This document shows positions 4,943 through 58,221 of a stretch of DNA of 64,000 nt, piece by piece (position 1 is the stretch's first letter; each line of letters begins with the position of its first letter). Source of the DNA: Candidatus Woesearchaeota archaeon (lineage in GTDB: Archaea > Nanobdellota > Nanobdellia > Woesearchaeales > SKGA01). Below the pieces are notes generated by a model. That model saw only the letters and a list, made by a program, of their open reading frames with translations. It was not told where the DNA came from and made no database searches. Made by a program: the position numbers and the translations under genes. Location: positions 24,556-88,555 of the forward strand of contig JAFGOT010000014.1 in the NCBI GenBank assembly GCA_016926395.1, written 5' to 3'.

Positions 4943-4943
4943 A

Positions 4944-23027: not shown

Positions 23028-23705
23028 ATGAGGATATTAAATGTAGATGCTCCGCTATGGTTTATACAGTGTGAGATAGGAATTCAACTAATTTTTGCCA
23101 TCGTAACGCTTCTAGTGGCTTTTTATGCATACAGAGTGTATAGAATTGCTAGACAAAAAAATTCTTTTTATCTTGGCGCCGGATTCTTAAGCATAAGCAT
23201 CGCATACTTCATACAAGCTTTTTTTAACTTTTTATTACTAAGACGAGTGACGACTTGTGGTTTCTTAAGTTTCATGGCAGGACACCCTGTTCAGTCAACA
23301 ATGACTTTAAGTGTATTGGTGGTTTTTTTACACATGGTGTTTATGGTGGCAGGATTTTCAGTACTATCATATATAACACTAAAAGAAAGAAACATAAAAT
23401 CATTTTACTTAATACTTGCATTATCTATTGCATCGCTTGTTTTTGCAGCAAATATGTCGATAATGTTTTATGTCTTACTAACAATAATGTTAGCATTTAT
23501 TACAATACAGTATAGTTTAAGGTTTAACAAAAAACCAACTACAGATACATTCATCGTGTTCTTAGGTTTTGGCATGGTGTTTTTAGGAACAATACAACTA
23601 GCACTGGCATCAGCTCTTGGTGCACTTTACGTTTCAGGTCACATAGTAACTTTAGCAGGTTATTTTTTACTATTAATCAATTTAATGAGAGTGGTTAGAA
23701 AATAA
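23028..23705 (+). CDS. hypothetical polytopic membrane protein (~7 TM)
   Basis: Hydrophobicity pattern only. Confidence 0.4.
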   Translation: MRILNVDAPLWFIQCEIGIQLIFAIVTLLVAFYAYRVYRIARQKNSFYLGAGFLSISIAYFIQAFFNFLLLRRVTTCGFLSFMAGHPVQSTMTLSVLVVFLHMVFMVAGFSVLSYITLKERNIKSFYLILALSIASLVFAANMSIMFYVLLTIMLAFITIQYSLRFNKKPTTDTFIVFLGFGMVFLGTIQLALASALGALYVSGHIVTLAGYFLLLINLMRVVRK

Positions 23706-23801: not shown

Positions 23802-24095
23802 GTGAGTAAAAAACGAGGTCGTTTACAAATAATTTATGACATATTACAGGCAGTTCGAGCTAAAGGCGGAACTATAAAACCAACTCACTTATTATACAAA
23901 TCAAACTTATCTCATCAAATGATGGGTGAATACTTAAAAGAATTAATGGGGAAAAACTTCATAAAAGAAGAAGTGGGACCTAAAGGAAAATCAAAAGTTT
24001 ATGTTCTAGCACCAAAAGGTTATGACTATCTAACTGAATACAAAACAGTAACTAGATTTGTAGAATCATTTGGATTAGAAGATGAAGAAGTTTAA
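23802..24095 (+). CDS. small winged-helix DNA-binding protein
   Basis: Basic N-terminus and helix pattern IIYDILQAVRAKGGTIKPTHLLYKSNLS typical of archaeal wHTH regulators. Confidence 0.45.
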   Translation: MSKKRGRLQIIYDILQAVRAKGGTIKPTHLLYKSNLSHQMMGEYLKELMGKNFIKEEVGPKGKSKVYVLAPKGYDYLTEYKTVTRFVESFGLEDEEV

Positions 24096-26092
24096 ACCAT
24101 AACAACATCGTGTTCTGATTTTATACCATAAATAAATACATAATTCCAAAATATTCCTTTCCATCGACCAATTTTTACAGCAAAACCTGCACGACGAAAT
24201 TCTGCTCTTAGTTGATCAAGGTTATTAGACCAAGAAGAGTTAGGAATAAAACCAAAGAAGTCACTGAATTCAACAAAACAAATTTCTCCATGTTCAGGAA
24301 GGGTTTGAGCCATATCTTTTAAGACTAGATGAATATTTTGAATATAATCAAGAGAACCGATTGAAATGATAGCATCAACTTCGTGAATACTTGGATGAAG
24401 ACGACTAATAAGATGTTCATCATGGATTGGTTCAATATTTACTATTCCTTTTTTCTTAGCACGCTTCTTGATAATTTCAACATTTCCTTCGGATAAATCA
24501 ACAGGAATAACTTTACCTTGAGGGCCAACAACATTTGCTAAGTCAAGACTTAAAGTTCCAACAGTAGCATGAAAATCAACAACTGTCTTGCCATGTAAAT
24601 CTTTAAACTCTCCAATAATTTTTTTACGAAGACTTCTTGGAAGATTATACTCCTCAAAGAAAACCGCGAATCGAGCAAAACGATTATTCATTTTTCTAGT
24701 CGCTTCAGGATTATAAAATAAAATAAGCAATACGTAAACAGGAATACCAACAGCAATTAAACTAACTGCTTTCCAAATAAGATGAACTTCTCCAGTCAAA
24801 CGCATATATGAGAAAATAAGTAACCCAAAGATACCAACAAGAATAAACGGTCCAATACTTCCAAAAGGGAGTTTGAAAGGACGTTCAAGTTCTACATACT
24901 TTTTTCTAAAAATAGGGATGGTTATCATTGTCAAACTAAGAACCACAAGAACCAAAAGTAAGAAAACTTCATGAATTAATTTGTATGGATCATGATGATG
25001 TCTCATGTATAAAAAAAACATGAAAGCAGTAAAAATGGAGATTGCTATGCTTTGAAATAAAATACTTCGGTGAGGGGTTTTGAATTTTTTGTGAAGCTCT
25101 GTAAAACTTTCAAGTAAAAGACGGTCTCTTGCTAAACTTCTAAGAAGGTTAGGACCGATGAAAATCCAGACTAGAGCGGGTGTGATAATCATAAATGCAG
25201 TGCCTAAAAATAGTGCTTGCTGAGCTATAGTTCCGTGCCAAAGAGTACTTAGAATATCTTTGTGAGGTATTAGGGCTGAAGAATATTTATTAATTGGAAA
25301 CATACCAATAGAACCAATAACGTAGATTAAAGTGGTTACTGCTGCAACTGATAGTGCTGCTATGATTGCTTTAGGAATGGTTCGTCTAGATTTTGCTTCT
25401 TCTGATAAGAATGTGATAATTTCCATTCCCATAAAGGCCTCAGAAATAATAAATGTTGTAGCAAATAAAATAAGAAGACTAAACCCTGAGGTCTGACCAA
25501 ACAAACTAAAAAAATTACTAACCGCACCAGTTGAACTAAGAGAGATTGCTTCGATATTAAAAAATAACGGAAGAATCTGAAGGACTACTACGGACACTGT
25601 AATTATTGATAGAATGACAAGAACTAACTTGTTTAAAGTTAATCCTCTAAAAACTAGGAAGTTAAGAAGAGCAATGATTGCAATACCAACTGCAAGTTTA
25701 AACAAATAATCCATCATGGTATTTGCAGGATAAAAATATTCTAAAGCCCAAACAACAGCTAAACTAGCACTGATGTTTCCTGCAATCCAAGAAGTCCAAC
25801 CAACAATGAATGCCGTGAAGTGACCGTATGCTTTTTTTGCATAAACATACAGGTCGCCTGCTTTTGGAAACATAGAAACCAGTTCTGCTAACGCCATAGC
25901 AATATAAAGACCAATACCAAAAGTTACAAGCCAAGCAATAAGCGATCTAGCGCCCATCATTTGAACACCAAGACCTGGAAGATATGTTAACGAGCTTGCA
26001 AAAATAGCGTTAAGAGTGATAAGAAAAATAACTCCAAAACCAACTTTTCTTCTAGTTGGCACTCCTTCAACTACGCCCTCGTTTTCAATCAT
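24092..26092 (-). CDS. amino acid/polyamine (APC) permease fused to C-terminal class I SAM-methyltransferase-like domain (motif I degenerate)
   Basis: ~12 TM APC-like N-domain. The C-terminal ~200 aa has a Methyltransf_11-like pattern (VVDFHATVGTLS..., IHDEHLISRLHPSIHEVDAIISIGSL) and is homologous to the C-terminus of 30880-32788. Confidence 0.7.
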   Translation of the reverse strand: MIENEGVVEGVPTRRKVGFGVIFLITLNAIFASSLTYLPGLGVQMMGARSLIAWLVTFGIGLYIAMALAELVSMFPKAGDLYVYAKKAYGHFTAFIVGWTSWIAGNISASLAVVWALEYFYPANTMMDYLFKLAVGIAIIALLNFLVFRGLTLNKLVLVILSIITVSVVVLQILPLFFNIEAISLSSTGAVSNFFSLFGQTSGFSLLILFATTFIISEAFMGMEIITFLSEEAKSRRTIPKAIIAALSVAAVTTLIYVIGSIGMFPINKYSSALIPHKDILSTLWHGTIAQQALFLGTAFMIITPALVWIFIGPNLLRSLARDRLLLESFTELHKKFKTPHRSILFQSIAISIFTAFMFFLYMRHHHDPYKLIHEVFLLLVLVVLSLTMITIPIFRKKYVELERPFKLPFGSIGPFILVGIFGLLIFSYMRLTGEVHLIWKAVSLIAVGIPVYVLLILFYNPEATRKMNNRFARFAVFFEEYNLPRSLRKKIIGEFKDLHGKTVVDFHATVGTLSLDLANVVGPQGKVIPVDLSEGNVEIIKKRAKKKGIVNIEPIHDEHLISRLHPSIHEVDAIISIGSLDYIQNIHLVLKDMAQTLPEHGEICFVEFSDFFGFIPNSSWSNNLDQLRAEFRRAGFAVKIGRWKGIFWNYVFIYGIKSEHDVVMV

Positions 26093-29409: not shown

Positions 29410-29760
29410 TCAGAAGACATATCCTTCCTCCTCCACTGTCCTAGTGTATCCAAGTCGTTCACCATCGAAATCAAAGTGGGTGAAATACTCTTTGATTGTG
29501 CTCCAGTCCGGTTTAGTGCTTAAGAGCCATTTTAGAACGTGTTCTGTATAACAATAAGCACAAACATTCATACGATTATTACTGACGATGCAAAAGTCGT
29601 CTCCACTAACCTTCAGTGGAATAATCTCAGCAGATGCTTCGTAAAAAGATTCTAACATCTGTGGTCTTGACTCTTGTAGCCAAGTCGCTATTTGTTCTTC
29701 TATCCTCTGGGGTGACAGAGGGTTTGTTATTTGTTCTTCACATAGAACACAGGCTCCCAT
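29410..29760 (-). CDS. Cys-rich hypothetical protein (CxxC...CxxC)
   Basis: CVLC...CAYC; locally higher GC than surroundings. Confidence 0.35.
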   Translation of the reverse strand: MGACVLCEEQITNPLSPQRIEEQIATWLQESRPQMLESFYEASAEIIPLKVSGDDFCIVSNNRMNVCAYCYTEHVLKWLLSTKPDWSTIKEYFTHFDFDGERLGYTRTVEEEGYVF

Positions 29761-30229
29761 TTTTTTTTACCTCATTTTGTTTAGCTTATTTATGGGTTCT
29801 TAGAAATTGTTTGTCGATATGCAAAAAACCAGAAGCGGACTGTCTTCTATAGAAATCGAATTTCAACTTTAGAATTAGTTTTTGCTTTCCTTGGTTGTCG
29901 TTCGATTTCCGGTTTTTCGGTTCGATTTACAACATCCAAGGATTCATAAACGCTTTATTATCAATGGATAGCTTACTAACTACATCAAAGACCACGCAGG
30001 TTAGCCGATAATGTAGATTCATATCCATTATAATTTATTTTTTGTGATGGTCATATTTAAACATTTCGTAAATATTGTTTTTTTCAATTAACTTTTCTTC
30101 GTTATTTTTTACTATCTTAGTATACAAAAAAGGCCAAAAAATAGAAATGTTTATAAACTATTTTTCCCAGTTTCCAATCAATCCTATTAATAAACGCTAG
30201 TTTAGCGCGAAATTGAGGTGTGAATTAAC

Positions 30230-30769
30230 ATGATGAAAAATATGAAAGGACAAGCAGCTATGGAGTTCTTAATGACCTATGGTTGGGCAATTCTTGTTGT
30301 ACTATTAGCAATTGGTGCTCTAGCAGCATTCGGTGTATTTAATTTAGACAAATACGCAGCATCAACTTCAGGTTTTGAAGGACAAAAAATGGCTGCAGTA
30401 AACGATGGTATGGTAATTAGTTTATCTGGCAATTACGTTGAAATCGCTTTAACAAACCAAGTTGGAACATCTGTAACATTACCTTTAACAGGTACTTTAG
30501 TTCCTGAACCAGGTACTGTTTGTACATTAAATCCTGCTGGTGCTGTTACTGCAACTTACAAAGATCCTGCAACAGGAAACTATACTGCTTTGGATTCAGC
30601 TACTATTCTTAGACAAGGAGATACTTTTGTAGTGCGATGGTCTTGTAATGGTGCAGCAAGTGCATCTCAAGGAGACGCATTCGAAGCAACTTTAACATTC
30701 GATTACATCAACGTTGAAACTGGTCAATCTAGAACAATGACTGGAACAACTAGAGGACGATACGAATAA
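30230..30769 (+). CDS. archaeal type IV pilin-like protein (class III signal peptide), candidate major pilin
   Basis: MMKNMKGQAAMEFLMTYGWAILVVLLAIGALAA is the classic KGQ cleavage site plus hydrophobic helix; small Thr/Gly/Ala-rich beta domain. Confidence 0.7.
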   Translation: MMKNMKGQAAMEFLMTYGWAILVVLLAIGALAAFGVFNLDKYAASTSGFEGQKMAAVNDGMVISLSGNYVEIALTNQVGTSVTLPLTGTLVPEPGTVCTLNPAGAVTATYKDPATGNYTALDSATILRQGDTFVVRWSCNGAASASQGDAFEATLTFDYINVETGQSRTMTGTTRGRYE

Positions 30770-30879
30770 ACCTTAACAGGTTAACTGTGATCAGAAATCT
30801 GTGATCAGTTACTTTTTTTCTTTTTCTTTTTTCTAATTCTTAATAACATTTAAAAATAGGTGATTTGATTTTTGACTTT

Positions 30880-32788
30880 ATGGAAGAAGGAGCACAATTA
30901 TCATTTCCAGTAATATTGCTAATCACAATAAATAGTATACTGGGGACTGGAATATTTTTTCTTACCTGCAGTAGGTGCTAGAGAGGCAGGTTTGTTTGCT
31001 ATTATTTCTTGGCTTATAATGGGTTTGATTGCTATAATGTATAGTATGGTTTTTGGTGAATTGGTTAGTCGTTATCCAAAAGAAGGTGGTGTTTTTGAAT
31101 ATGCAAAGGAGGCGTTTGGATTCTTCCCTAGTTTTTTGCTTGGTTGGATGACTTTAATTGCAGCTAATGTAACTATTGCAATGCTTATGGTTGGGGCAAT
31201 AAAATATGTCGGTCCAAACTTGAGTAATTTATTCATAGCAGGAATAAGTATTCTATTTATTTTGGCATTTAATTTTGTTGCTTTTAAGGGGTTGAAAACG
31301 GGCAAAGTAATGTTATTAACTTTTGCAGGCATAACATTAGTTGCTGTTTTGGGAATATTAATTCCTGGACTAATAAACTTTAATCCTGCTAATTTCACTA
31401 ATTGGTTATCTCATGAAAGTTTTGCTGGTTTTGGATTTAATGTTTCAGGGTTAGTAGGTGGCTCAGTGATTATTTTTGGAACTATTTTTTTTATTGCAGA
31501 AACTTTTTTCGGTTGGGAAACTGTTACTTTTTTAGCAGAGCAAGTTAAAAACCCAAAAAAAATAATGCCTAATGCATTAGTCAAAGGAACTGTTTTGATT
31601 TCGATTTTTTCATTATTATTCGTGATTGCAAGTAAAAGTATTTTACATTGGAGTGTTTTAGCAAATTCTTCAACTCCTTTAGCTGATCTTGCAAGTGCTG
31701 TTTATGGACCTGCAATGATTCCTGTGTACAGCATCTTAGTTTATCTAGCGATAATTGGTAGTGTGGCGGGGTGGATAGTTGCGGCTCCAAATCTACTTGT
31801 AGCTTTGGCAAAAGATAAATTATTTATTCCTTCTTTTGCAAAAAAGCACCCTAAAACAGGAACTCCTTACAAAGCAATATTATTTCAAACAATTGTAACT
31901 TCTGTATTGGTAATAATTGGAGCTGGAAGTTATGAAACTCTTCTTCACTTATTAGTTCCTTTAGTTTTGGTTTTATATGGCAGTGTTGTCTTAAGTTTAT
32001 TATATATTAGAAAGAAAAACAAAGAGTTTGATGGATATAAAGCTCCTGGTGGTTTAGTATTGCCCATTTTTCTTTTACTATTCACTTTAGCTTTGGTTTT
32101 GATGTGGGGTTTTCAAGAGCATAATGCTATAGAAACTGTTGAAGTATTAATCACTTTTCTAGTTTTAGGAATTCCTGTATTTTTGTTGATGAATTTCCAT
32201 CACAATCCTCATGCAAGTGTTACTTTTCAGAATAAAACAGTTGGACTTTCGAAATTTCTGGAAAGGTTATTTTTGCCTAAAAAAATACGAGTTAGACTTC
32301 TTGAAAAAATGGAGAATCACCACAAGGTGTTGTTTTTAGGGGCCGGATCTGGAATTTTAATAAAAGAATCTTCTATTCCCAAAGAGAACATAATTGTGAT
32401 TGAACATTCTGAAAGTTTAGCTAATCATTTAAAAAACCGTTTTCCGACAATAGCGGTTATTCATGATGAACACGCAGTATCAAGATTACACCCTGACATA
32501 AAAAAAGCTGATGTTGTTGTTAGTGTAGGGATGCTTGCTCATATACAAAGTTTATCGATGCATCTAAAACAGTTACATAATATCCTTCCAGAGAATGCTT
32601 TGATACGTTTTTTTGACTATTCAAAATTTTATAAAGTAATATCTAATAATATTCCCGAAATTGATGAGCTAAAGAAAGTTTTTAGAGAAAACGGATTTTC
32701 AGTTAGGGTTGAAGAAATAAAAGGTATTTTTTGGAATTATTTGATAATAGAAGGCGTTAAAACTGATTTAGATGTTGTTTATATGTGA
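30880..32788 (+). pseudogene. APC permease-SAM methyltransferase fusion (paralog of 24092-26092), frameshifted in T6 run
   Basis: N-terminus MEEGAQLSFPVILLITINSILGTGIFF is in frame 1 from the ATG at 30880; the rest, LPAVGAREAGLFAIISW..., is in frame 2 (ORF-track ORF from TTG 30992). The switch is at tttttt 30955-30960; T5 would restore GIFFLPAVG. C-terminal domain has intact motif I VLFLGAGSG. Confidence 0.7.
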
Positions 32789-32837
32789 TTTTTATTAATC
32801 GTTACTTTTAAATAATCTCTCGCTTCAAAACAATCTA

Positions 32838-33257
32838 ATGAGGAGGGTGAGATCTAGTTCTGGTCAGGTGGCAATGGAGTACTTGATAGTATTCTTGATG
32901 GCTTTTTTTATGACCATGCCTCTTATAATAATCTTTTACACGCAATCAAATAACTTTGAAGACGATATTTCTGTGGCTCAAGCAAATAAATTAACTTCAG
33001 AACTAATCGATGCTGCAGAAGAAGTTTATTTTCTTGGGAGTCCATCTCAAAAAACGGTTGATGTGACGTTTCCAAATGGATTGCAAGAAATAACCATTGA
33101 ATCAAATTCGCTCATATTAAACATGACATCAAAAGGAGATGACTATTTGGTTTATGGAGATACTTTGGTTAATTTAACGGGTATTTTACGAACAAGCCCG
33201 GGAAGAAGACCGGTAAAAGTTGTTGCGACAGGAACTGGAGTTCAAATAACTGATTAA
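32838..33257 (+). CDS. pilin-like protein with class III signal peptide
   Basis: SSGQVAMEYLIVFLMAFFMT. Confidence 0.6.
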   Translation: MRRVRSSSGQVAMEYLIVFLMAFFMTMPLIIIFYTQSNNFEDDISVAQANKLTSELIDAAEEVYFLGSPSQKTVDVTFPNGLQEITIESNSLILNMTSKGDDYLVYGDTLVNLTGILRTSPGRRPVKVVATGTGVQITD

Positions 33258-33287
33258 TGAAATGCTCTTCTTCCAAGTTTTAAGAAA

Positions 33288-33698
33288 ATGATACATACTA
33301 AAAAAGCACAAGTTTCGATAGAATTTATCATTCTTTTAACGATGAGTGTCTTTATGATAATAACTTTTATGATTGCAATAAAACATGTATCTGATCAAAA
33401 ATTATTAAAAAAAACATTAAACGAACTAGATGACTTGGGCAAGAGTGTTCAACAAGAATTGATGCTTGCATCACAATTAAATGATGGTTATGTTCGAGAA
33501 ATATACATTCCAGCAAGGCTTTATGGAGTGGATTATTCTCTAAATACAAGCGCAGTCTCTGGAACGGTGATGTATCTAAATATTTACTACGAAGGTGTTG
33601 AATTATTTTATTTAATTCCCTACATACAAGGAGATGTAAAAACAGGACTTAACACAATATCAAAAAATAACAATACGGTAATGGTATCTCAAACATGA
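33288..33698 (+). CDS. pilin-like protein with class III signal peptide (Ala at -1)
   Basis: TKKAQVSIEFIILLTMSVFMII. Confidence 0.5.
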   Translation: MIHTKKAQVSIEFIILLTMSVFMIITFMIAIKHVSDQKLLKKTLNELDDLGKSVQQELMLASQLNDGYVREIYIPARLYGVDYSLNTSAVSGTVMYLNIYYEGVELFYLIPYIQGDVKTGLNTISKNNNTVMVSQT

Positions 33699-34204
33699 TG
33701 AAACGAAAAGGACAAGTGTTTACACTGGATTTTTTTATTGGCTTATTTGCATTCATTGTATTATTAGTTATAGGTTTTACACAATTATTTTCTTTCTTAC
33801 CAAATTCTGATTTTAAACAATTATATGGTGATGCAACTTATTTATCAAATGTTTTAGTCGATTCAGGTTATCCTACTTATTGGAATTCAACAAACGTTCT
33901 TCTTCCAGGACTCGCTGACAATCATCGATTAAATGTTACTAAATTACACGAGTTCGAAAATATTTCTTATACTAACAGTAAATTATTATTTCATATCACT
34001 TCTGAATATGTTTTCTTTTTCAAGAATCAAACGGATTATTTGAATTTATCAAATTGTACTTATGGCTATCCAATATCTGTTAACATAACTAGTTGTGAGC
34101 CTAATTTATTATCTTTTAATTATAAAAACTTAGTAAAAACTCAAAGACTATTGGCTTATGATGGGAACATTGTGACAATGGTGATTTACACGTGGAAAAG
34201 ATGA
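33695..34204 (+). CDS. pilin-like protein with class III signal peptide
   Basis: MMKRKGQVFTLDFFIGLFAFIVLLVIGF; 4-nt overlap with the previous gene. Confidence 0.6.
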   Translation: MMKRKGQVFTLDFFIGLFAFIVLLVIGFTQLFSFLPNSDFKQLYGDATYLSNVLVDSGYPTYWNSTNVLLPGLADNHRLNVTKLHEFENISYTNSKLLFHITSEYVFFFKNQTDYLNLSNCTYGYPISVNITSCEPNLLSFNYKNLVKTQRLLAYDGNIVTMVIYTWKR

Positions 34205-36873
34205 ATAATAAAGGAATATACTACTCAATGGATGCTTTATTAGCAGGACTTCTATTTGTAGGTGTAATTTTATTATTATTTCAAAACAGTTTTTATGAAC
34301 CAAATACTGATCAACAAAATTTCTTGTCCCAGGATTTATTAGCATCACTTGGATCGATAACTTTAGGAGAATCAAATTATCCGATGATTACTGCAGAATT
34401 ATCTTCAGGGCAATATGTTGATGCTAACAACACCGTACTTGAGCTTATTGGAATTTATTGGGCATTAAATCAAACGCAAAATGCAACAAAGATTATAACT
34501 CGCTTTGTAAATGGAACCGTTCCAGATCAACTTTACTTACAACTAAATCTCGATGGTGATGACTTGTATCCATACCAAAACTCAACAACTCCAACAAACA
34601 TAATTGGTGGGCGGAGAATGATAACTGGAATCGCGCAAGGAAAACCTTTAACTGGTTTTAGTTCTTCAGCATATTTAAAAAAAGTACGAAACAAAAAAAC
34701 ATCTTCTTATGCTTATTTTGGAGGATATTATGCTCAAGGAAATATTTCAACAACACTAAATCTTCCAAGTGACTTTTCATCATCAAGAATAATTTCTGCT
34801 CGAATAAATATTGAAACTCCTGGAACATTTGATTTGCTGATAAATGGCAATGTTTGCTTAAATGACGTAACTGGTTTAACAACAACTGTTACGTCATGGG
34901 ATTTAATAAATTGTAATTCTAGCTTTAAACCAAACAAAAATAATATTTCATTTATTTATTCAAGTGAACTTAATGTATCTGCAATATCTGGTGGTTTAAT
35001 AAAAGTAACATACACAACAGACACCTTAAAAGAAATAATTCCAACAGGGTATAAAAGATATTACTTGCCAGAAATTCAAGGATTCATAAACGTTTATGAC
35101 GCTTTCTCTGCGCAAGGATTAATTGATTCTTGGAATTTGAATATGACTTTTTACAACGAATACGATACTTTTGTGACTATAGGAAATGAAACCATTTTTA
35201 TCGCACCTGGAAGTAATACAACACAAAACATATTTTTCTCAAGAAATAATGCATCCTTGCCACCAACAGAAATTCCACTAAGGGTTGGAACAACAAATCT
35301 TTCAAACATAACAATTGTTCAATCAGGTGATCCATCTGACTCGTTTTTAGTAACTGATGTATCTGGAAGTATGGATGATTGTGGATTATATTATACAGAA
35401 AATGTTACCTATTGTGGTTATGATTATAAATTTTGGTTCTGGTGGACTTACACTGAGTGTCCTTATACAGGATCATGTGTTTCAAATGAATGTGGAGGAT
35501 CTACAACGACTCAAAACCATGTTATTTATGATAAAACAGTTTCAACTTGTAACAAAACTTTGATGGAGTTAGCAAAAGAAGCTGATGATTTATTTGTTGA
35601 TGTGGTTCTTGGAAACTCAACGTTAAATGAAATTGGATTGATAGATTTTTCAACTAATGCTAATACTCCAACTGATCTTACAAACATTCCAGGTGTATTG
35701 CACAGCGAAATATCAACTTATTCTGCAGGAGGAAATACTTGTACTTGTTGTGGTATAAATAGAGCAAAAGATTTGCTTTTATCTTCAGATGATGATAAGT
35801 TTATGGTTGTACTAAGTGATGGAGAGCCAACCGCTTACTGTAATGGATTTAGTGATTATACTGGTTCAACTGGAGATAACACTCAGGCAAGAAATGATGC
35901 TATTGCGTCTGGACAAGAAGCTTGTGCAAATAACATAACTGTTTATACAATTGGATTTGGAGAGGGAATGTCTGCTCAAGGACATGATATAATGAGACAA
36001 ATAGCTTGTAATGATTCATTATATTATAATGCTTCTAATGCTGGAGACTTAGCAGAAATTTATGAAAATATTTCTCAAGATATTTTAGTTGCAGCAAATT
36101 ATTCATCACAAACAATAAACATAGTTGGAAATTTTACAATCGCAAATTTATCAAAAGATTCATACATTGATTTGTACTACACACCTATTGTCCAAGAAGA
36201 TAATCAAGGTAAATTATCGATGGTGTTTGAATCAGCTCCATTTGGTGGTTGCACATCGTCTGTAAGCATACCAGGAGGGGTGTTAATTGAGGATGCATAT
36301 GTAACCTCTTTCTCAAGTAATCATTGGACGAAAAAATTAGATGTAAATGGTATTAATGTATTTAATTTATCGGAGTATGGATCTGATTATACTTTACTTG
36401 GGGATCCTTTCATCATACAAGTTCCATCTGCAGTTTTAATTCCTGGAGCAACGAATAACTTTACACTTGAAGTTGGCGATAACCCTGTTAACATTTCAAG
36501 TTGTTCACCAAATAATACTTTTATCTACACTGCTTTAATTAATGCTTCAACACCGCGAGGAGAAACTTATGAAGAACATGAAGGTTGTACTTGGATTGTA
36601 GAATCTGAAACAGGAAAAAATTCCACTATAAAAATTCCTAAAGATTATTCAGGTCCAAATAATTGTTCGTATACTTCCGCAAGCATTAGTTATAATGTAT
36701 TAGATGCATACGACTCTGCGACTCACTTCTTATTATCGCAATTAGATCCTGACAATAATGGAAAAATAATTGTTGACTTAGCAGAATCAGATTTAGAAAT
36801 AACAATAACTTTGGTTAGTGGAATTCCATATCTTTGGGGTCCCACTCTTGTAGGAACTCAAGTAGGTAGTTAA
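34192..36873 (+). CDS. large pilin-like protein (893 aa) with von Willebrand factor A domain, candidate pilus adhesin
   Basis: N-terminal NNKGIYYSMDALLAGLLFVGVILLLF class III-like signal; MIDAS motif LVTDVSGSMDD (DxSxS) near aa 390; many N-x-S/T sites; Cys-rich segment. Confidence 0.6.
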   Translation: MEKMNNKGIYYSMDALLAGLLFVGVILLLFQNSFYEPNTDQQNFLSQDLLASLGSITLGESNYPMITAELSSGQYVDANNTVLELIGIYWALNQTQNATKIITRFVNGTVPDQLYLQLNLDGDDLYPYQNSTTPTNIIGGRRMITGIAQGKPLTGFSSSAYLKKVRNKKTSSYAYFGGYYAQGNISTTLNLPSDFSSSRIISARINIETPGTFDLLINGNVCLNDVTGLTTTVTSWDLINCNSSFKPNKNNISFIYSSELNVSAISGGLIKVTYTTDTLKEIIPTGYKRYYLPEIQGFINVYDAFSAQGLIDSWNLNMTFYNEYDTFVTIGNETIFIAPGSNTTQNIFFSRNNASLPPTEIPLRVGTTNLSNITIVQSGDPSDSFLVTDVSGSMDDCGLYYTENVTYCGYDYKFWFWWTYTECPYTGSCVSNECGGSTTTQNHVIYDKTVSTCNKTLMELAKEADDLFVDVVLGNSTLNEIGLIDFSTNANTPTDLTNIPGVLHSEISTYSAGGNTCTCCGINRAKDLLLSSDDDKFMVVLSDGEPTAYCNGFSDYTGSTGDNTQARNDAIASGQEACANNITVYTIGFGEGMSAQGHDIMRQIACNDSLYYNASNAGDLAEIYENISQDILVAANYSSQTINIVGNFTIANLSKDSYIDLYYTPIVQEDNQGKLSMVFESAPFGGCTSSVSIPGGVLIEDAYVTSFSSNHWTKKLDVNGINVFNLSEYGSDYTLLGDPFIIQVPSAVLIPGATNNFTLEVGDNPVNISSCSPNNTFIYTALINASTPRGETYEEHEGCTWIVESETGKNSTIKIPKDYSGPNNCSYTSASISYNVLDAYDSATHFLLSQLDPDNNGKIIVDLAESDLEITITLVSGIPYLWGPTLVGTQVGS

Positions 36874-36874
36874 G

Positions 36875-37858
36875 ATGAAATTAAAGATTAAAAAAATGAA
36901 CAACAAGGGATTCACATATTTAATCGCTGTATCTTTTCTAATTGCCACACTTATAGTTGTATATTTAAGCGCTACTGATTATGGATTTCAAGATCAACAA
37001 GAATTGTACAAGAACCGAATTGTTGCAATGGATAATTTTGTGAGTGACTTTAATCAAGACGTGCATCGAGCAAGTTATATTGCTTCATTTAGAACTTTAC
37101 TTTCTTTAGAAGATTATGTTGCTGTCAATGGAGAATTCTTTAACAATACTGAAGATCAATTCAAAGAAACATTTTATTATGGTCAAATAAACAGATCTGA
37201 AGCTGAACTTATGAATGGTTCTAGTTTTGAAGATTATTTATCCAGGGTTAATGTTGTGGCTGAAAAAATTGGAATACACTCAAATGTTACTGTTACAGAT
37301 ATAACTCTTTCACAATCTGATTTTTGGTCCATAGATGTGGTGATAACTGCTCTTGTTAATATTACTGATAACCATAACATTGCATCTTGGAGTTTTGAAA
37401 AAAATTATTCAACAAACGTTCCAATATATGATTTAAGAGATCCTCTTTATAGTACTTTTACATTCAATCGAGTTCCAAACACAATAAGAAAACTAGATGT
37501 TCCTTACTTGGTTAATGGAACAGACACTTTTAACTTAGAAACGCACATTAATGGTTCTTATTATCTAGAATCAACTGATGCGCCAAGTTTCCTACAAAGA
37601 TTTGAAAATAATTTGAGTCCAAGTCCTTATGGTATAGAAAGTATTGTTAATGTTGGTTTAATCTCAGCCCAAGAAGTTGGTGTTTGCGAAGATTGTATCA
37701 AAGTTGATTATATGTATTTTAATGGTTTAACCGATACCAAACTTTGTGATGTTCAAAACATTAATCCAAATACTTACTTTGTAATTCCTCTAAATCAAAA
37801 CGAAACTTATGAAGTTTCTAATTTGACTTTTTCTACTGGTGGAAGTTGTAATACTTAA
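36875..37858 (+). CDS. pilin-like protein with class III signal peptide
   Basis: NNKGFTYLIAVSFLIATLIVVYL; starts 2 nt after the previous stop. Confidence 0.55.
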   Translation: MKLKIKKMNNKGFTYLIAVSFLIATLIVVYLSATDYGFQDQQELYKNRIVAMDNFVSDFNQDVHRASYIASFRTLLSLEDYVAVNGEFFNNTEDQFKETFYYGQINRSEAELMNGSSFEDYLSRVNVVAEKIGIHSNVTVTDITLSQSDFWSIDVVITALVNITDNHNIASWSFEKNYSTNVPIYDLRDPLYSTFTFNRVPNTIRKLDVPYLVNGTDTFNLETHINGSYYLESTDAPSFLQRFENNLSPSPYGIESIVNVGLISAQEVGVCEDCIKVDYMYFNGLTDTKLCDVQNINPNTYFVIPLNQNETYEVSNLTFSTGGSCNT

Positions 37859-37978
37859 TTATTTTTGATAAAACCTGTTAATTTGATTTAAAGTTAGAAA
37901 TAAAGAAAAATTCATTTGAACTATTGTATAGTAGTTACGCAAGATATATAAGAGTAATTTATCCCTTTTTTTATTAGT

Positions 37979-39124
37979 ATGAAGAATATAACGACAGGTA
38001 TTGACAGATTGCTCCAGTTAGTAGAAGAGCGTAAAAAGATATCTGCTGAAACTGCCGCAAAAGAATTGAATCTTGGTAAAGATGTGATTGAAGAATGGGC
38101 AGAAATATTAGAACAAGAAAAAATAGTAAATTTATCATTCAAATTCTCAAAAATGCATATTGAAGCGAAAAAAATAACTGAGAGAACAGTATTTGATTCT
38201 GCAAAACAAATATCTTCACAAAAAGAAGCATTTCATAGAAAGATTGAGTCGACAATAAAATCAATCGACAACGAATCGGCAGGTTTTGAAGAAATAAGAT
38301 CTGAGTTTGAAAAAATCCAAGGTCACATTAAAGACGAACTAGAAACCGTAAGGAAAGAAATGAAAGAGCTAGAACATTTCGATGCCCTGAAAAAAAATAT
38401 TGAGAAAGACATTCAGACACAAAAAAAAGATTACGAATTATTTACTAAAGCTTATGATGAAGAGATGAAGACGTTTGAAAAAAATTATTCATCTTCAATT
38501 GAAAAACTAAAAAAAGAACAAGACACACTAAAAAAACTTCAGGATTCAATAGTAGGTCTTAGAAGCGATAAACAAGAAATTGAAAAAATAATAAAAGAAT
38601 CTTTACAACGATTAAAAGACGTTGAAAAGAAAGCAGATGAACAAATAGTTGATATGAAACAAACAGAAAAAACTATTGATAAATTGAAAAAAGAAATTGA
38701 TGGTCTGTCAACAAATATTAAAGTTTCACGTGCTAAGAACCTAAAAACACTTGCTAAAATTGTTGGTGAAGGAAGAGAGAGAATAACTAAAGATCATGAA
38801 AACCTTCTAAAGAATGCACAATCCAAAGTTACTGAATTAAAAGACTATGCTGATGCTGGAGAAAAAATATACAAAAAATTCTCTGATAAATTTATGAAAA
38901 AAATCGAAACAGGAGATTTAATCTCTGAAATCGAAAAAGAAAAAAACGACTTAAAAGATGAATTGATTGAACTTGATAAAAAAGTTCAAACTTTTAATGC
39001 ACTTAAGGGGAGTGTTGAAGTAAAAGATCAATTCAAAGAAATTGAAGCAAAAATATTTTCTTATGAAGAAAAAAGACACAAACTAAGCGATAAAATAAAC
39101 AAATTGCTTGGGATGATGAAGTAA
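37979..39124 (+). CDS. wHTH + long coiled-coil protein, homolog of 55478-55936 (N-domain)
   Basis: GIDRLLQLVEERKKISAETAAKELNLGKDVIEEWAEILEQEKIV aligns with GVDELIRYLRTKGKVSLKEASTHLNIPEQTLQLWLDFLVEERII in the second pilus locus. Confidence 0.5.
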   Translation: MKNITTGIDRLLQLVEERKKISAETAAKELNLGKDVIEEWAEILEQEKIVNLSFKFSKMHIEAKKITERTVFDSAKQISSQKEAFHRKIESTIKSIDNESAGFEEIRSEFEKIQGHIKDELETVRKEMKELEHFDALKKNIEKDIQTQKKDYELFTKAYDEEMKTFEKNYSSSIEKLKKEQDTLKKLQDSIVGLRSDKQEIEKIIKESLQRLKDVEKKADEQIVDMKQTEKTIDKLKKEIDGLSTNIKVSRAKNLKTLAKIVGEGRERITKDHENLLKNAQSKVTELKDYADAGEKIYKKFSDKFMKKIETGDLISEIEKEKNDLKDELIELDKKVQTFNALKGSVEVKDQFKEIEAKIFSYEEKRHKLSDKINKLLGMMK

Positions 39125-39167
39125 TAAGAAAAGACTTAATTTATTTTTTAAAAGGGGTGGATGGTAA

Positions 39168-40847
39168 TTGCCAACTAATAAAAAAACTAAAGCTGTTAAA
39201 AAATCTACAAAGAAAACCGCTAAAAAAAGTGTTAGCAAAAATTCTAAATCAAAATCATTAGCTTCAAAAAGTAAAGCTAAACAAAAGACATCTAAGTTAG
39301 AAACAGAACACGTTGGAACTCAAACGCATGAAATTGATGACTATAAATACTTATCTGGCGATATACCTATTCGAATAACAATAAAAAAACACCCTCACGA
39401 ATTTGTTCCGATATATGACTTAGAAATAGCATCTATTAGTGATACAACAAAAATAATGCTTGAAAAAATAAGACAAGAATTAATCAAAAAAGTAAGTCTT
39501 GGAATTGCAGATCTTAGTGATGTTAAAAAATCAGATGTGGTTGAAGAACGATTTGAAGAATTGATTCAAATCCTAGTTGAAAAATACTTACCTGATTCCG
39601 ATCTTGAAACAACACATTTCTTAACTTCTTATCTTCGTATTAAAAGTCTAGGGCTTGGAAATTTAGAATTAATAATGGATGATCACCAACTAGAAGAAAT
39701 TGTTATTAATCAAGCAAACGAACCTGTTTGGATATTTCATAAAAAATATGGTTGGCTAAAATCAACAACTTATCTAAAAGATGAAAATCAAATCAGACAT
39801 TTTGCAAGTATCATTGGAAGACGAGTAGGGCGTCAAATAACTGTTTTAACACCTCTTCTTGATGCTCACCTAAATGGTGGGGATAGGGTTAATGCAACAC
39901 TTAGTCCTGTTAGTACTGCAGGTAACACCATAACAATTAGGAAGTTTTCACGAGACCCTTGGACAATAACTAAGTTTCTAAAAGCAGGAACCATATCTGA
40001 AGAAGCGGCTGCTCTAGTGTGGTCTGCAATACAATACGAGATGAGTGCATTAATCGTAGGTGGAACCGCATCTGGGAAAACAAGTGCGCTAAACGTATTT
40101 GCAAGTTTCTTCCCACCAAACCAGAGAATAATTAGCATTGAAGATACAAGAGAAATTAGGCTTCCAAAATTTCTGCATTGGGTTCCTTTAAACACTGTGA
40201 TGTCAAACGCTGAAGGAAAAGGAGAAATAAGTATGGGTAACTTACTTGTTAACAGTTTAAGGATGCGTCCAGACCGAATACTTGTAGGTGAAGTACGTAG
40301 AAAGCAGGAAACAGAAACATTATTTGAAGCAATTCACACAGGTCACTCAGTATACGCAACATTTCACGCAAACAACGCACAAGAAGCAGTTGATCGTTTA
40401 ACAAACGCACCACTTGATGTTCCAAAGATTATGCTTCCAGCGATTTCAATTCTAGTCGTTCAATATAGGAACCGAAGAAATGGAAAACGAAGAACTTTCC
40501 AAATAGCAGAGATAACTTCAAAAGGAGATCCGAATGTGTTGATGCAATACGATGCTAAGAATGATGTATTAAACCCTGCTTCAAGAATGATTGAAACTTT
40601 ACTTAAAGGAAAATCGGCGTTCTATGATACTATAAAATCCTTTACTGGAATGGATAACAAAGAATTGATCCAAGACCATAATGAAAAAGTAAAAATTCTA
40701 AAATACTTAGTTGAGCACGATATAACTTCAGTTGATGGTGTTGGTCGAATAATGGCTGAATATTATACTGATAAAGAAAATTTAATGAGATATGTGAATA
40801 CTAATAAAGAATTCCCTATGAACGTTGCGAAAGATGAGGCCGTGTAA
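39168..40847 (+). CDS. type IV pilus/archaellum assembly ATPase (FlaI/TadA/PilB-like) with Lys-rich N-terminal tail
   Basis: Walker A GGTASGKTSALN, Asp box IISIEDTREI, His box LVGEVRRKQE...HTGHSVYATFHANN. Confidence 0.9.
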   Translation: MPTNKKTKAVKKSTKKTAKKSVSKNSKSKSLASKSKAKQKTSKLETEHVGTQTHEIDDYKYLSGDIPIRITIKKHPHEFVPIYDLEIASISDTTKIMLEKIRQELIKKVSLGIADLSDVKKSDVVEERFEELIQILVEKYLPDSDLETTHFLTSYLRIKSLGLGNLELIMDDHQLEEIVINQANEPVWIFHKKYGWLKSTTYLKDENQIRHFASIIGRRVGRQITVLTPLLDAHLNGGDRVNATLSPVSTAGNTITIRKFSRDPWTITKFLKAGTISEEAAALVWSAIQYEMSALIVGGTASGKTSALNVFASFFPPNQRIISIEDTREIRLPKFLHWVPLNTVMSNAEGKGEISMGNLLVNSLRMRPDRILVGEVRRKQETETLFEAIHTGHSVYATFHANNAQEAVDRLTNAPLDVPKIMLPAISILVVQYRNRRNGKRRTFQIAEITSKGDPNVLMQYDAKNDVLNPASRMIETLLKGKSAFYDTIKSFTGMDNKELIQDHNEKVKILKYLVEHDITSVDGVGRIMAEYYTDKENLMRYVNTNKEFPMNVAKDEAV

Positions 40848-41642
40848 ATGAGCTATAAGCAACTAGCAAAGAAATTTCCCGGACTAAAAGAAAAATTAAA
40901 ATCTGCTGGAATAGTTGATACTCCAGAAGAATACGTAAAAAAAACATTCATGACTGCTGCAATGTTTGCAGGAGGACTAACTGCTGTTGTATTAATAATA
41001 TTTCAAGCATTATGGACTTTAATAGTTCCATTTATTGTAGGTGTTCCAATATTTTTATACTTGATGAAATATGTAGATGTTAGAATAGTACAACTACAAA
41101 GACAGATAGATGAAGAAATTGTTTTTGCAGGAAGATTCTTAATTATAGAATTACATTCAGGAGTTCCAATTCACGAAGCTTTTGAAACACTTGCAGCTAA
41201 TTATGAAACAGTTGGTGTTTATTTTGGAGAAATAGTTGATAAGATGTATTTAGGAACGGCACTTGAAGAAGCAATAAATGATGTTCTCTTAAATTCGCCA
41301 TCTCCAACACTTAGAAGAATATTGTGGCAATTATTAAATTCTATGAAAACAGGAAGTGATGTTGCACCTGCACTCTCTTCTGTAATTGAACAAATTGTAA
41401 AAGAACAAGATATAGCAGTAAAAGAGTATGGTAAAAAACTCAATCCTTTGGCAATGTTTTATATGATGCTTGCTGTTATAGCGCCAAGTTTAGGAATTGT
41501 AATGCTTGTGGTTCTTGCAACATTTGTAGGTTTTAGTTTGAGCTTAACAGTTCTTTTAGCAATTGCTGGATTAATTGGATTTGTACAATTAATGTTTATG
41601 ACAATAATGAAATCATCACGACCACCCATTAGTATGGGTTAA
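40848..41642 (+). CDS. TadC/FlaJ-like pilus platform membrane protein
   Basis: Follows the ATPase by 0 nt; TM-soluble-TM layout of the T2SS-F family; homologous to 58222-59031. Confidence 0.7.
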   Translation: MSYKQLAKKFPGLKEKLKSAGIVDTPEEYVKKTFMTAAMFAGGLTAVVLIIFQALWTLIVPFIVGVPIFLYLMKYVDVRIVQLQRQIDEEIVFAGRFLIIELHSGVPIHEAFETLAANYETVGVYFGEIVDKMYLGTALEEAINDVLLNSPSPTLRRILWQLLNSMKTGSDVAPALSSVIEQIVKEQDIAVKEYGKKLNPLAMFYMMLAVIAPSLGIVMLVVLATFVGFSLSLTVLLAIAGLIGFVQLMFMTIMKSSRPPISMG

Positions 41643-41651
41643 AAATGTAAA

Positions 41652-42899
41652 ATGGGATTATTAAAAAACGCAGTGGAAAAATACAAAACGGCAAAAATTA
41701 AGTTAGATTTAGCGAGAGCTAAGAAAAAAGAATTGGAAGAAGAAAGAAGTCATCTTATCTACAACGCAAAAAAATCAATGGAGAAAAATTCTTCTAATGA
41801 AGCAAACTCGGAGAAAAAAACCGAAAAGAAAAAAACAACCACTCCGATTAAGAGCAGAGCAATAATTAGTAAATTTGATAAGAAAAAAACAGTTCAAAAA
41901 AGAAGATTCTCCAGATTTCTAGAAGATTTTCTTGAAAAAGCAGGGATAGAAAAAAAGCCAAAAGAAATAAGTAAATCAGTAATTTTTGTTTCAATAATCT
42001 TAACATTCATTTCCATAATTGCATTTATTATTTATGGATTAACTAATTTTTTGTCATCTAATGCTTATTTTGTCTTTATACCTTTAATCATAATTCTTGG
42101 TTCGGTATTTTTTTATATTGCAAGTTTGATAACTTTATTTATTTACTTTGACTTTAAAATTTATCAACGAACAGGACAGATAGAAGATGTTCTGCCTGAT
42201 TTTCTACAGCTTGCATCTGCGAACATAAGTGCGGGAATGCCAATTGATAGGGCATTGTGGTTTGCTGTAAGGCCTCGTTTTGGAGTGTTGGCAAAAGAGA
42301 TGGAAGAGATTGCAAAAGCCACATTTACCGGAAGCGAACTTGATGAAGCATTGATTAAGTTCACACAAAAATATAAATCACGATTACTAAAAGAATCAGT
42401 CAATCTAATAATCGCCGGATTAAAATCAGGAGGAGAATTAGGAGATTTACTGAATAAAATTAGTGAGAACATTCAACAAACAAAAATAATGAGAAAAGAA
42501 ATAAGTGCAAGCGTTATGACTTATGTTATTTTTATAGGGGTGGCTTCAGTTCTAGCAGCACCTTTGTTATTTGCTTTAAGCTCTCAATTATTGCATGTGG
42601 TAACTGGAATATCGGGTGACTTTGATACATCTGCAATGGAAGACATGCCTTCTGGCGTGATGCCAATATCATTTAATTTTGGATCGGGAGAAAGCGTAAA
42701 ACAATCAGATTTTAAGATATTTTCATTTACTTTAATAGTAATAACTTCTTTCTTTGCGGCTGCCATAATAGGTGTAATCCAAAAAGGTAATGCAAAATCC
42801 GCATTAACTAAGTTTCCAATGTTTCTGGTAATTTCTTTAATAATATTCTATGTTTCTAACAAATTTTTAGGAATACTGCTTGGCGGCCTCATGGGGTAG
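41652..42899 (+). CDS. second TadC/FlaJ-like membrane protein
   Basis: T2SS-F-like segment LPDFLQLASANISAGMPIDRALWFAVRPRFG; homologous to 59021-60070. Confidence 0.65.
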   Translation: MGLLKNAVEKYKTAKIKLDLARAKKKELEEERSHLIYNAKKSMEKNSSNEANSEKKTEKKKTTTPIKSRAIISKFDKKKTVQKRRFSRFLEDFLEKAGIEKKPKEISKSVIFVSIILTFISIIAFIIYGLTNFLSSNAYFVFIPLIIILGSVFFYIASLITLFIYFDFKIYQRTGQIEDVLPDFLQLASANISAGMPIDRALWFAVRPRFGVLAKEMEEIAKATFTGSELDEALIKFTQKYKSRLLKESVNLIIAGLKSGGELGDLLNKISENIQQTKIMRKEISASVMTYVIFIGVASVLAAPLLFALSSQLLHVVTGISGDFDTSAMEDMPSGVMPISFNFGSGESVKQSDFKIFSFTLIVITSFFAAAIIGVIQKGNAKSALTKFPMFLVISLIIFYVSNKFLGILLGGLMG

Positions 42900-42963
42900 A
42901 AAGCTTTAAAAAGGACTTTGAAGTCTCTGATTCTTACAAGCGTAACTATTGCGTTTGTTGTTT

Positions 42964-42994
42964 TTCATTGGCTTTTTTTTGCTGTAGTCGTATA
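42964..42994 (+). repeat. partial duplicate of tRNA-Ser 5' flank plus first ~15 nt (copy 1)
   Basis: ttcattggcttttttttgctgtagtcgtata versus ttcattggctttttttgctgcggtcgcata at 43048-43077. Confidence 0.6.
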
Positions 42995-43063
42995 CAATGA
43001 AAGTCTTAGATTTTCAAGCATGCGACCTGTCTGAAAAGATTTTTTGTTTCATTGGCTTTTTTT

Positions 43064-43145
43064 GCTGCGGTCGCATAGTCTGGTATTGCGCAGGATTGCT
43101 AATCCTGTCCTTTTAGGATCGAGTGTTCAAATCCCTCCCGCAGCG
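43064..43145 (+). tRNA. tRNA-Ser (anticodon GCT), class II with 13-nt variable arm
   Basis: Manual fold gives acceptor GCTGCGG/CCGCAGC, 3-bp D-stem GCA/TGC, anticodon stem CAGGA/TCCTG, loop TTGCTAA, variable arm TCCTTTTAGGATC, T-loop TTCAAAT, and T-stem GAGTG/CCCTC with one U-C mismatch; CC encoded after discriminator G. Confidence 0.7.
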
Positions 43146-43270
43146 CCTTTTTTCATTCTATATTGTTTTTATCATGTAGTCGGAATTTGAACACTACAAA
43201 AATCAGAGATTTTTGAGGCATTTTAACAACTCTGTTGCATTTCAAAGAAATGTAGAGTTGTAGTAAAATG

Positions 43271-55419: not shown

Positions 55420-55477
55420 TTCTTCACTGCAAAATGGTTAATAAACTTTATAACTCTTTTTTAAAATAAATATAGCC

Positions 55478-55936: not shown

Positions 55937-55941
55937 AAAAT

Positions 55942-56697: not shown

Positions 56698-56703
56698 TTT
56701 AAA

Positions 56704-58212: not shown

Positions 58213-58221
58213 GTAAATAAT

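Follow-up and report, generated by a model that had tools for sequence, protein, structure and literature searches.

A conserved gene cluster of Woesearchaeota that probably encodes an archaeal adhesive type IV pilus with a von Willebrand factor A domain subunit

DPANN archaea live attached to hosts, and their mode of attachment is largely obscure. A 64,000-nucleotide stretch of a Candidatus Woesearchaeota archaeon genome (contig JAFGOT010000014.1, positions 24,556 to 88,555; hereafter the window) therein poses a concrete question: what is built by a group of genes with prepilin-like N-termini that lie beside a secretion ATPase? Eleven plus-strand genes were called within positions 30230-42899, namely a stand-alone gene (A), a permease-methyltransferase gene, a block of five genes (B-F), and the genes G, H, I, and J (Table 1). 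The antisense open reading frames (ORFs) of this interval are short and lie inside the plus-strand genes. Very probably, the locus encodes the assembly machinery and the subunits of an archaeal, adhesive type IV pilus. An earlier analysis made from the letters of the DNA (the sequence-only reading) had also arrived at an archaeal adhesion-pilus locus, and protein domains, synteny, conserved signal motifs, and structure models all agree with it.

The products of genes A-F share the features of class III (prepilin) signals. All six begin with a short basic stretch, have G or A at the -1 position of the predicted processing site, and continue with a hydrophobic segment of ∼20-25 residues. When conservation of the motif was scored on orthologues from seven to eight other contigs, the -1 residue was found to be G or A with one exception and the -2 residue was nearly always K or R. 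Q at +1 was invariant in the families of A-D, E at +5 in those of A-C, and D at +6 in those of D and E; in the orthologues of F, neither +5 nor +6 is ever acidic. Three N-terminal motif classes are represented among the six prepilins. The sequence-only reading had ascribed a K/R-G/A-Q pattern to all six. Its basic N-terminus, small -1 residue, and hydrophobic helix hold throughout, but Q at +1 is found in A-D only (E reads KG↓I and F reads KG↓F, the arrow marking the processing site), and the B protein of the window has S at -2, where its orthologues have mostly K or R and in one case Q. Six of the nine motif-bearing genes in the window fall inside a single run of 7 genes out of 63 (P ∼8e-6, or ∼5e-4 after allowing for all possible runs). 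This clustering is not due to chance. Five of these genes had been described as packed together at 32838-37858, and the ORFs are indeed all found there, with tight spacings of 30, -4, -13, and +1 nt from B to F.

The genes that follow the prepilin block encode a recognizable assembly machine. H is an ATPase with a Walker A motif (residues 298-305), an Asp box (322-326), a Walker B motif (370-375), and a His box (391-400). A winged helix-turn-helix (wHTH)/coiled-coil gene followed by an ATPase with Walker A, Asp, and His boxes had been reported before, and the T2SSE domain match and the additional Walker B motif strengthen that assignment. The best NCBIfam match of H is to FlaI (1.9e-74, 251 bits against a cut-off of 550), and the TadA model TIGR03819 is matched with 191 bits (cut-off 373). 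Among proteins of known structure in the PDB, H is closest to afGspE of Archaeoglobus (2OAP, 221 bits), followed by FlaI (184) and CpaF (157). Many of its orthologues carry the label ‘FlaI’ in the Joint Genome Institute (JGI) annotation. The H reading frame starts with TTG, preceded by a Shine-Dalgarno-like ggggtgg, and its first ∼50 residues (39168-39320) form a Lys/Ser-rich low-complexity tail. The length of this tail varies widely, and orthologues range from 437 to 746 aa in total.

Directly after H, and in the natural domain order, come the membrane proteins I and J, each with one T2SSF domain that passes the Pfam cut-off. I aligns weakly to positions 23-225 of the 484-residue UpsF model (E 2.7e-4), J to positions 272-554 of the 555-residue ArlJ model (E 5.7e-10), and the two proteins are distant paralogues (23% identity, E 3e-7). 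Because I thus represents an N-terminal platform half (as in UpsF) and J a C-terminal one (as in ArlJ/FlaJ), the pair is best understood as one fissioned PilC platform. The sequence-only reading had listed two TadC-like genes; two T2SSF genes are present, but as complementary halves of one platform rather than as separate TadC copies. The remaining member of the group, G, has no transmembrane segment or signal peptide. Its matches are of the coiled-coil type to SMC/Rad50 only, and a comparison with PDB sequences returned nothing meaningful. G has 529 representative relatives of very constant length (mostly ∼382 aa). The simplest guess would be that G serves as a cytoplasmic scaffold or regulates the ATPase. 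With a motif-complete ATPase, an adjacent T2SSF platform, and class III subunits bearing a hydrophobic helix, the locus has hallmarks of the superfamily of type IV filaments (TFF).

The arrangement is conserved well beyond this contig. The comparison drew on 10 loci from one genome-collection scan, a limited sample, and on sequence look-ups (loci are numbered in the L series). When their ORFs were compared with A-J by BLAST, L001, L002/L006, L003, L005, L007, and L012 all showed the unvaried order B-C-D-E-F-G-H-I-J, over a range of ATPase identities from 78% down to 48%, and L009-L011, which include a metagenome-assembled genome of Iainarchaeum, kept it in part. Synteny of the B-J cassette extends to at least six further DPANN contigs, and G lies directly upstream of the ATPase in L001-L013. 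H, A, and E match NCBI proteins of a Candidatus Woesearchaeota archaeon with 100% identity. Downstream of the locus, the genes encode a proteasome subunit, FttA (the termination factor of archaea), a radical-SAM protein, and a DNA polymerase of family B. Since the same neighbors recur in related contigs, the pilus locus is chromosomal and resides in a conserved core-genome neighborhood.

The position of A is more mobile. A placement upstream of the cassette is seen in L002, L003, and L005 (same strand) and in L001 (opposite strand); in L007, L010, and L012 the gene is downstream of J, and in L011 it is on the opposite strand. This stand-alone mobile position, together with oligo-T tracts after its stop codon and, before the gene, a TATA-like box and a good Shine-Dalgarno sequence, leads us to infer that A is likely to be the major subunit. 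A short ORF resembling the Flp or EpdE pilins was not found anywhere in the 64-kb window, which leaves A as the sole major-pilin candidate, and the earlier proposal of A as candidate major pilin is retained. We detected 3888 homologues of A. Most of them are unnamed and some are called ‘UPF0333 family’ by JGI; the NCBI name for A itself is ‘hypothetical’. Across 76 sequences of the A family, residues Q8-A20 (QAAMEFLMTYGWA) and the cysteines C98 and C139 are invariant. Structure prediction of the filament subunit had been proposed as a check on the sequence-only reading. The AlphaFold (AF2) model of A (predicted local distance difference test, pLDDT, 87) accords with it, consisting of a long N-terminal helix (residues 6-33) and a beta-sandwich of ∼8 strands. 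Such a layout is typical of archaeal pilins.

Four of the other class III proteins (B, C, D, and F) resemble minor pilins. The N-terminus of B is similar to those of A and C (hhalign, 95%), and the likeness among these three proteins is confined to their N-terminal segments. None of A, B, C, D, or F had a match above threshold in Pfam or NCBIfam. Below the cut-offs, B has a weak match to UpsB (NCBIfam, E 0.016), and C matches Pfam Class_IIIsignal with an E-value of 0.0017, the sole such match among A-F. F is homologous to the protein b2 of a second locus discussed below (hhalign, 90% over ∼250 residues). N-glycosylation sequons are about twice as frequent as expected in D (7 versus ∼2.5), E (32 versus ∼16), and F (11 versus ∼5). 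E also contains 18 cysteines, whereas G-J have no cysteine at all and show no sequon enrichment. This distribution fits an extracellular, glycosylated state of D, E, and F.

The most distinctive component of the locus is E, which had been singled out before as an 893-aa class III protein with a von Willebrand factor A (vWA) domain; in the NCBI annotation it starts at the ATG at 34201 and has 890 aa. That description is upheld by its pilin-like helix, a Pfam VWA match (1.1e-8), and a metal ion-dependent adhesion site (MIDAS) composed of D389-x-S391-x-S393, T516, and D543, residues that are fully or almost fully conserved across 64 sequences. The AlphaFold model of E (pLDDT 85.7) begins with the pilin-like helix (residues 7-31), followed by a helical bundle, beta domains, the vWA domain, and C-terminal beta domains. 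In the model, the vWA domain spans residues ∼380-640 and contains a Cys-rich beta-hairpin insertion. In the PDB, the fold of E is matched best by two pilus-tip adhesins, Mfa5 (2.7e-10) and SpaC (8.8e-10), through their vWA domains; next come the vWA domain of the LapA adhesin and the anthrax toxin receptors, and the top matches also include vWA domains from intracellular proteins.

Table 1. Coordinates of the pilus locus, its flanking signals, and the second locus (positions of the window; ↓, predicted processing site)
Feature	Position	Strand	Description and evidence
TATA-like tttataaa	30150-30157	+	5' of A; possible promoter element read from the sequence
Shine-Dalgarno-like gaggtg	30215-30220	+	9 nt 5' of the A ATG; read from the sequence
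A	30230-30769	+	Candidate major pilin, 179 aa, MMKNMKG↓QAAMEFLMTYGWA...; class III motif, homologues, AF2 model
Oligo-T tracts	30813-30833	+	Just 3' of A; possible archaeal terminator, which would make A monocistronic
Permease-methyltransferase	30881-32788	+	Amino-acid permease fused to methyltransferase domain; Pfam AA_permease_2 4.5e-34 (from profile position 32) and Methyltransf_23
B	32838-33257	+	Minor pilin-like, 139 aa, ...SSSG↓QVAMEY; Q+1 and E+5 invariant in 8 orthologues
C	33288-33698	+	Minor pilin-like, 136 aa, KKA↓QVSIEF
D	33695-34204	+	Minor pilin-like, 169 aa, KG↓QVFTLDF, D at +6
E	34192-36873	+	Modular pilin-like vWA protein, 893 aa, candidate tip adhesin, KG↓IYYSMDA
F	36875-37858	+	Minor pilin-like, 327 aa, KG↓FTYLIA
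G	37979-39124	+	Cytoplasmic wHTH and long coiled-coil protein (‘CCP’ of Hamm et al. 2024, PMC11291902)
H	39168-40847	+	PilB/FlaI/TadA-family assembly ATPase, 559 aa; T2SSE 2.9e-32
I	40848-41642	+	Platform half 1, one T2SSF domain; T2SSF 1.5e-15
J	41652-42899	+	Platform half 2, one T2SSF domain; T2SSF 2.3e-14
Hairpin and T-run	42936-42958	+	After J; possible operon end, consensus match only
tRNA-Ser	43064-43147		3' of the hairpin and T-run after J
Second locus, class III protein	53780-54316	+	RKG↓AYFFVLDA
Second locus, b2	54307-55419	+	Class III protein of the F family, 370 aa
Second locus, HTH protein	55478-55936	+
Second locus, 251-aa protein	55942-56697	+
Second locus, ATPase (H2)	56704-58212	+	48% identical to H
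Second locus, split platform (I2, J2)	58222-59031 and 59021-60070	+

Which of the known filament systems does this locus resemble? A fission of the platform into two single-T2SSF genes is common to Epd-like pili and bacterial Tad systems (Denise et al. 2019, PMC6668835), and it has been used to define a ‘System 1’ with DPANN archaea among its hosts (Sivabalasarma & Albers 2026, bioRxiv 10.64898/2026.04.22.720090). The locus shares this platform with System 1 and with the Epd pilus of Methanococcus maripaludis. The Q+1/E+5 signal of that pilus (KGQ or RAQ processing sites) recurs in A-C; D has Q+1 but D+6, and E and F have I and F at +1. Substrates of the peptidase EppA are defined by Gln at +1 and Glu at +5 (PMC4371748). 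As in the Epd system, several minor pilins are encoded with the machinery, and an adhesive role, here a predicted one, would be common to both. On the other hand, the Epd major pilin has ∼70 aa and no globular domain, while A has 179 aa and a beta-sandwich. A nine-transmembrane EppA and a FlaH/KaiC-like second ATPase were not found in the locus, the window, or related loci, and the gene order here is ATPase, N-half, C-half.

The sequence-only reading had called the locus Tad-like. The features that stand are the TadB/TadC-like split platform and the Q+1/E+5 signals, and to these can be added the pilin motif G↓xxxxE(Y/F), a single CpaF-related ATPase and, as described for Tad loci (PMC4858521), pseudopilins together with a vWA-containing TadG-like protein. 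The label does not extend to the ATPase: archaeal GspE and FlaI outscore CpaF, which is third among the PDB relatives of H, and H stays below the cut-off of the TadA model. The locus also lacks a Flp-size pilin, TadZ/CpaE, and an RcpA secretin. Because of the large globular A, the absence of a linked EppA or FlaH-like ATPase, the different gene order, and the lack of Q+1 in E and F, we do not file the locus as either Epd or Tad, although in platform and signal chemistry it works like both. A split platform is not exclusive to System 1 and is also known for clade 2 and 4A/4B loci (PMC4858521; bioRxiv 10.64898/2026.04.22.720090). Many clade 2 loci have two tadC genes too (Makarova et al. 2016, PMC4858521), and in some 4A loci of Nanoarchaeota and other DPANN archaea an ATPase and a pilin occur with two platform genes and with an adhesin described as ‘remotely homologous to PilY’ (bioRxiv 10.64898/2026.04.22.720090). 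From subsystem 4A, going by its published description, the locus differs in the placement of its pilin genes, which come upstream of the ATPase; the accessory genes of 4A are placed downstream of its platform gene.

A different parallel is suggested by the set B-F. In bacteria, minor subunits and vWA adhesins form tip complexes, as in PilVWX-PilY1 of type IVa pili and the modular pilin PilB of Streptococcus sanguinis, and GspHIJK is the corresponding complex of the type II secretion system (T2SS). The locus likewise combines about four small minor pilins with a large vWA/MIDAS adhesin-like protein and includes one subunit without the conserved acidic residue. E itself bears a pilin N-terminus, as does S. 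sanguinis PilB and unlike PilY1. The bacterial complexes have no detectable sequence homology to this locus, and the analogy is architectural.

A second, paralogous type IV pilus (T4P)/coiled-coil locus was found in the same window at 53780-60070 on the plus strand. It contains two class III proteins, one of them b2, and an HTH protein to which the N-terminus of G is 29% identical. An A-like major pilin gene was not found in it, so this second locus may draw on pilin A as well or on a pilin encoded at an unlinked site. Two conserved loci of this kind, with a CCP beside a CpaF-like ATPase and TadC, have been described across cluster 2 DPANN archaea, Woesearchaeota included, and several of their proteins, including CCPs, were seen by proteomics in Ca. 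Nanohaloarchaeum antarcticus, according to the main text of Hamm et al. (2024, PMC11291902). By that description, the common features are the cluster 2 host, the layouts G-H-I-J and wHTH/CC-H2-I2-J2 (55478-60070), the presence of two loci per genome, and filament genes associated with only one of them. The type of locus and its distribution are thus already published in that account. The main text is an outline centered on the CCP; it contains neither ‘vWA’ nor ‘prepilin’, and a description of six class III proteins, of their signal motifs, or of the mapping of a fissioned platform was not seen in it. The present analysis adds the six prepilins with their three motif classes, the platform halves, and a MIDAS-bearing modular pilin, an addition that is useful but will not surprise a specialist.

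By analogy with characterized type IV filaments, the parts can be assembled into a working model. The prepilins would be inserted in the membrane and cut after the -1 G or A; the gene for the class III signal peptidase that does so would lie elsewhere. An H hexamer docked on the I+J platform would then lift subunits from the membrane into a helical fiber made mainly of A. B, C, D, F, and E would assemble first, as a priming or tip complex. F may sit at the very tip, since it lacks an acidic residue at +5 or +6 just as GspK and PilX lack E5. The complex would carry E to the distal end of the fiber, where the intact metal site of its vWA domain would bind a ligand on a surface or a host cell. 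Outside the cell, A and E would probably be disulfide-bonded, and D, E, and F are probably N-glycosylated. Both the order of assembly and the ligand of E are conjectural in this scheme, and attachment to a host is the function that the predicted pilus may serve.

Several other explanations must be weighed against an adhesive pilus. The machinery could drive a short pseudopilus, like that of a T2SS or a bindosome, which would present the vWA protein and further class III substrates on the cell surface, or release them, without ever forming a long fiber. The same core parts serve the T2SS and the Sulfolobus bindosome, H matches the BasE bindosome model with 1.2e-42 (though far below its cut-off), ‘minor’ types make up five of the six class III proteins, and many archaeal proteins whose signal peptides are of class III have been argued to functionalize TFF machineries (bioRxiv 10.64898/2026.04.22.720090). 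We nevertheless consider this unlikely, as a dedicated and highly conserved stand-alone A with its own expression signals and a terminator-like tract fits a fiber subunit, and substrate-binding-protein domains were not found in A-F with Pfam or NCBIfam. A pilus that serves mainly for uptake of DNA or nutrients, in a competence-like manner, would suit an organism unable to make its own nucleotides; pilus-mediated DNA import has been proposed for DPANN archaea (PMC9563170), and type IV pilis' double use as DNA-uptake devices is common (PMC6668835). This strikes us as quite improbable, given that the locus and its conserved flanks contain no ComEA/ComEC-like or nuclease genes and that the largest conserved subunit has a MIDAS vWA domain, with adhesins (those of pilus tips among them) and receptors among its top folds, beside the intracellular proteins noted above.

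The two remaining alternatives were rejected. A reduced archaellum, that is, a swimming motor, could be argued from the names of the H orthologues and from FlaI being the best NCBIfam match of H, but the score of that match is less than its cut-off demands, the platform is split, and an adhesin-like vWA subunit is present. The sequence-only reading had likewise argued against an archaellum on the grounds that FlaH, FlaF, and FlaG were not seen, and our searches for an archaellin domain, ArlH/FlaH, ArlF/G, ArlCDE, or ArlX were also negative, making such a motor very improbable. There is hardly any chance that A-F are ordinary membrane-anchored or Sec-secreted proteins that merely lie beside a secretion ATPase. 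This idea could draw on the failure of every one of the six to reach the threshold of a curated pilin model, yet it leaves unexplained the conservation of G/A at -1, Q at +1, and E+5 or D+6 across divergent orthologues, the hydrophobic helix of ∼25 residues right after the motif (one long helix in the models of A and E), the strict co-linearity with the ATPase and platform in many genomes, and the clustering reported above.

Although an adhesive type IV pilus accounts best for the locus, a number of results weigh against that interpretation. A matched no Pfam family, and a scan of all 76 members of its family yielded scattered chance matches only. A search of PDB sequences with the A profile retrieved no solved pilin and nothing else of meaning, and a Foldseek search of the PDB with the A model returned only generic Ig-like sandwiches at TM-scores of 0.25-0.39. 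The assignment of I to the N-terminal half of PilC/UpsF comes from the weak alignment given above. A prepilin peptidase (Peptidase_A24) was not found in the 64-kb window, all multi-transmembrane ORFs of which were scanned, or in the flanks of related loci; in archaea the peptidase gene is often unlinked (PMC4858521). The terms ‘major pilin’, ‘tip complex’, and ‘host attachment’ draw on analogy to bacterial T4P and T2SS and on gene arrangement.

The permease gene between A and B is outside the pilus system. In L002, L003, and L005 the distance from A to the downstream B is ∼120 nt, with no permease in it, indicating that the permease is a lineage-specific insertion. Its reading frame is broken by a 1-nt frameshift in a run of six T residues at 30955-30960, with the first ∼25 codons in another frame; deletion of one T restores the sequence GIFFLPAV, as in the intact paralogue at 24092-26092. 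Of the earlier claim that a permease pseudogene was inserted between the first pilin and the rest, the insertion stands; the pseudogene is one of two readings, as the frameshift could equally be a true inactivating mutation or a homopolymer sequencing error. Both paralogues, on the plus strand here and on the minus strand at 24092-26092, have a C-terminal S-adenosylmethionine-dependent methyltransferase domain, an unusual fusion. Repeat and tandem-repeat scans of 29700-43200 gave AT-rich chance matches only, and no mobile-element ends were found flanking the permease. A sigma-70 promoter scan found fewer sites than in shuffled sequences; this is a bacterial model and not applicable to an archaeon.

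Other genes of the window are of interest in their own right. Divergent from A lies a gene for a 116-aa CxxC...CxxC protein (29410-29760, minus strand) without a Pfam match, which is kept at the same position in L002, L003, and L005 (47-55% identity). Cys-rich metal-binding proteins have been linked to clade 1 pilus loci, as have transglutaminase-family surface peptidases (Makarova et al. 2016, PMC4858521), and a 736-aa secreted protein with a transglutaminase-core domain is encoded at 17133-19343 on the minus strand, ∼11 kb from the pilus locus. At 4166-8972 on the plus strand, two genes lie directly one after the other: the first encodes a 258-aa protein whose N-terminus is class III-like (MVCGKKG↓QITLFVIIG), the second a 1342-aa protein with a Sec-type signal and an isochorismatase-like domain. 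A further substrate of the same peptidase and surface machinery may be encoded here. A 225-aa protein with ∼7 transmembrane segments (23028-23705, plus strand) was considered as a prepilin peptidase and rejected, as it has no GxGD motif and no Pfam match. It is almost without acidic residues.

The general picture of type IV filament biology is unchanged by these results. It is possible, though doubtful, that all the threads join: E would be an archaeal ‘modular pilin’ that combines a class III N-terminus with a MIDAS vWA adhesin, delivered to the tip by B, C, D, and F as a host-recognition determinant of Woesearchaeota, and the whole system would stand as a sister lineage to the Epd/Tad branch, one with a large pilin. 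If that lineage relationship were true, the split platform and the Q+1/E+5 signal would predate the loss of the globular domain of the pilin. Pilins usually go unannotated in DPANN genomes; according to one study, Nanohaloarchaeota have none that are annotated (PMC9563170). The locus supplies a predicted parts list for a conserved Woesearchaeota pilus, comprising a likely fiber subunit, five accessory proteins, and among them a carrier of a metal-dependent adhesion site, and it offers the vWA domain of E and pilin A as testable targets.

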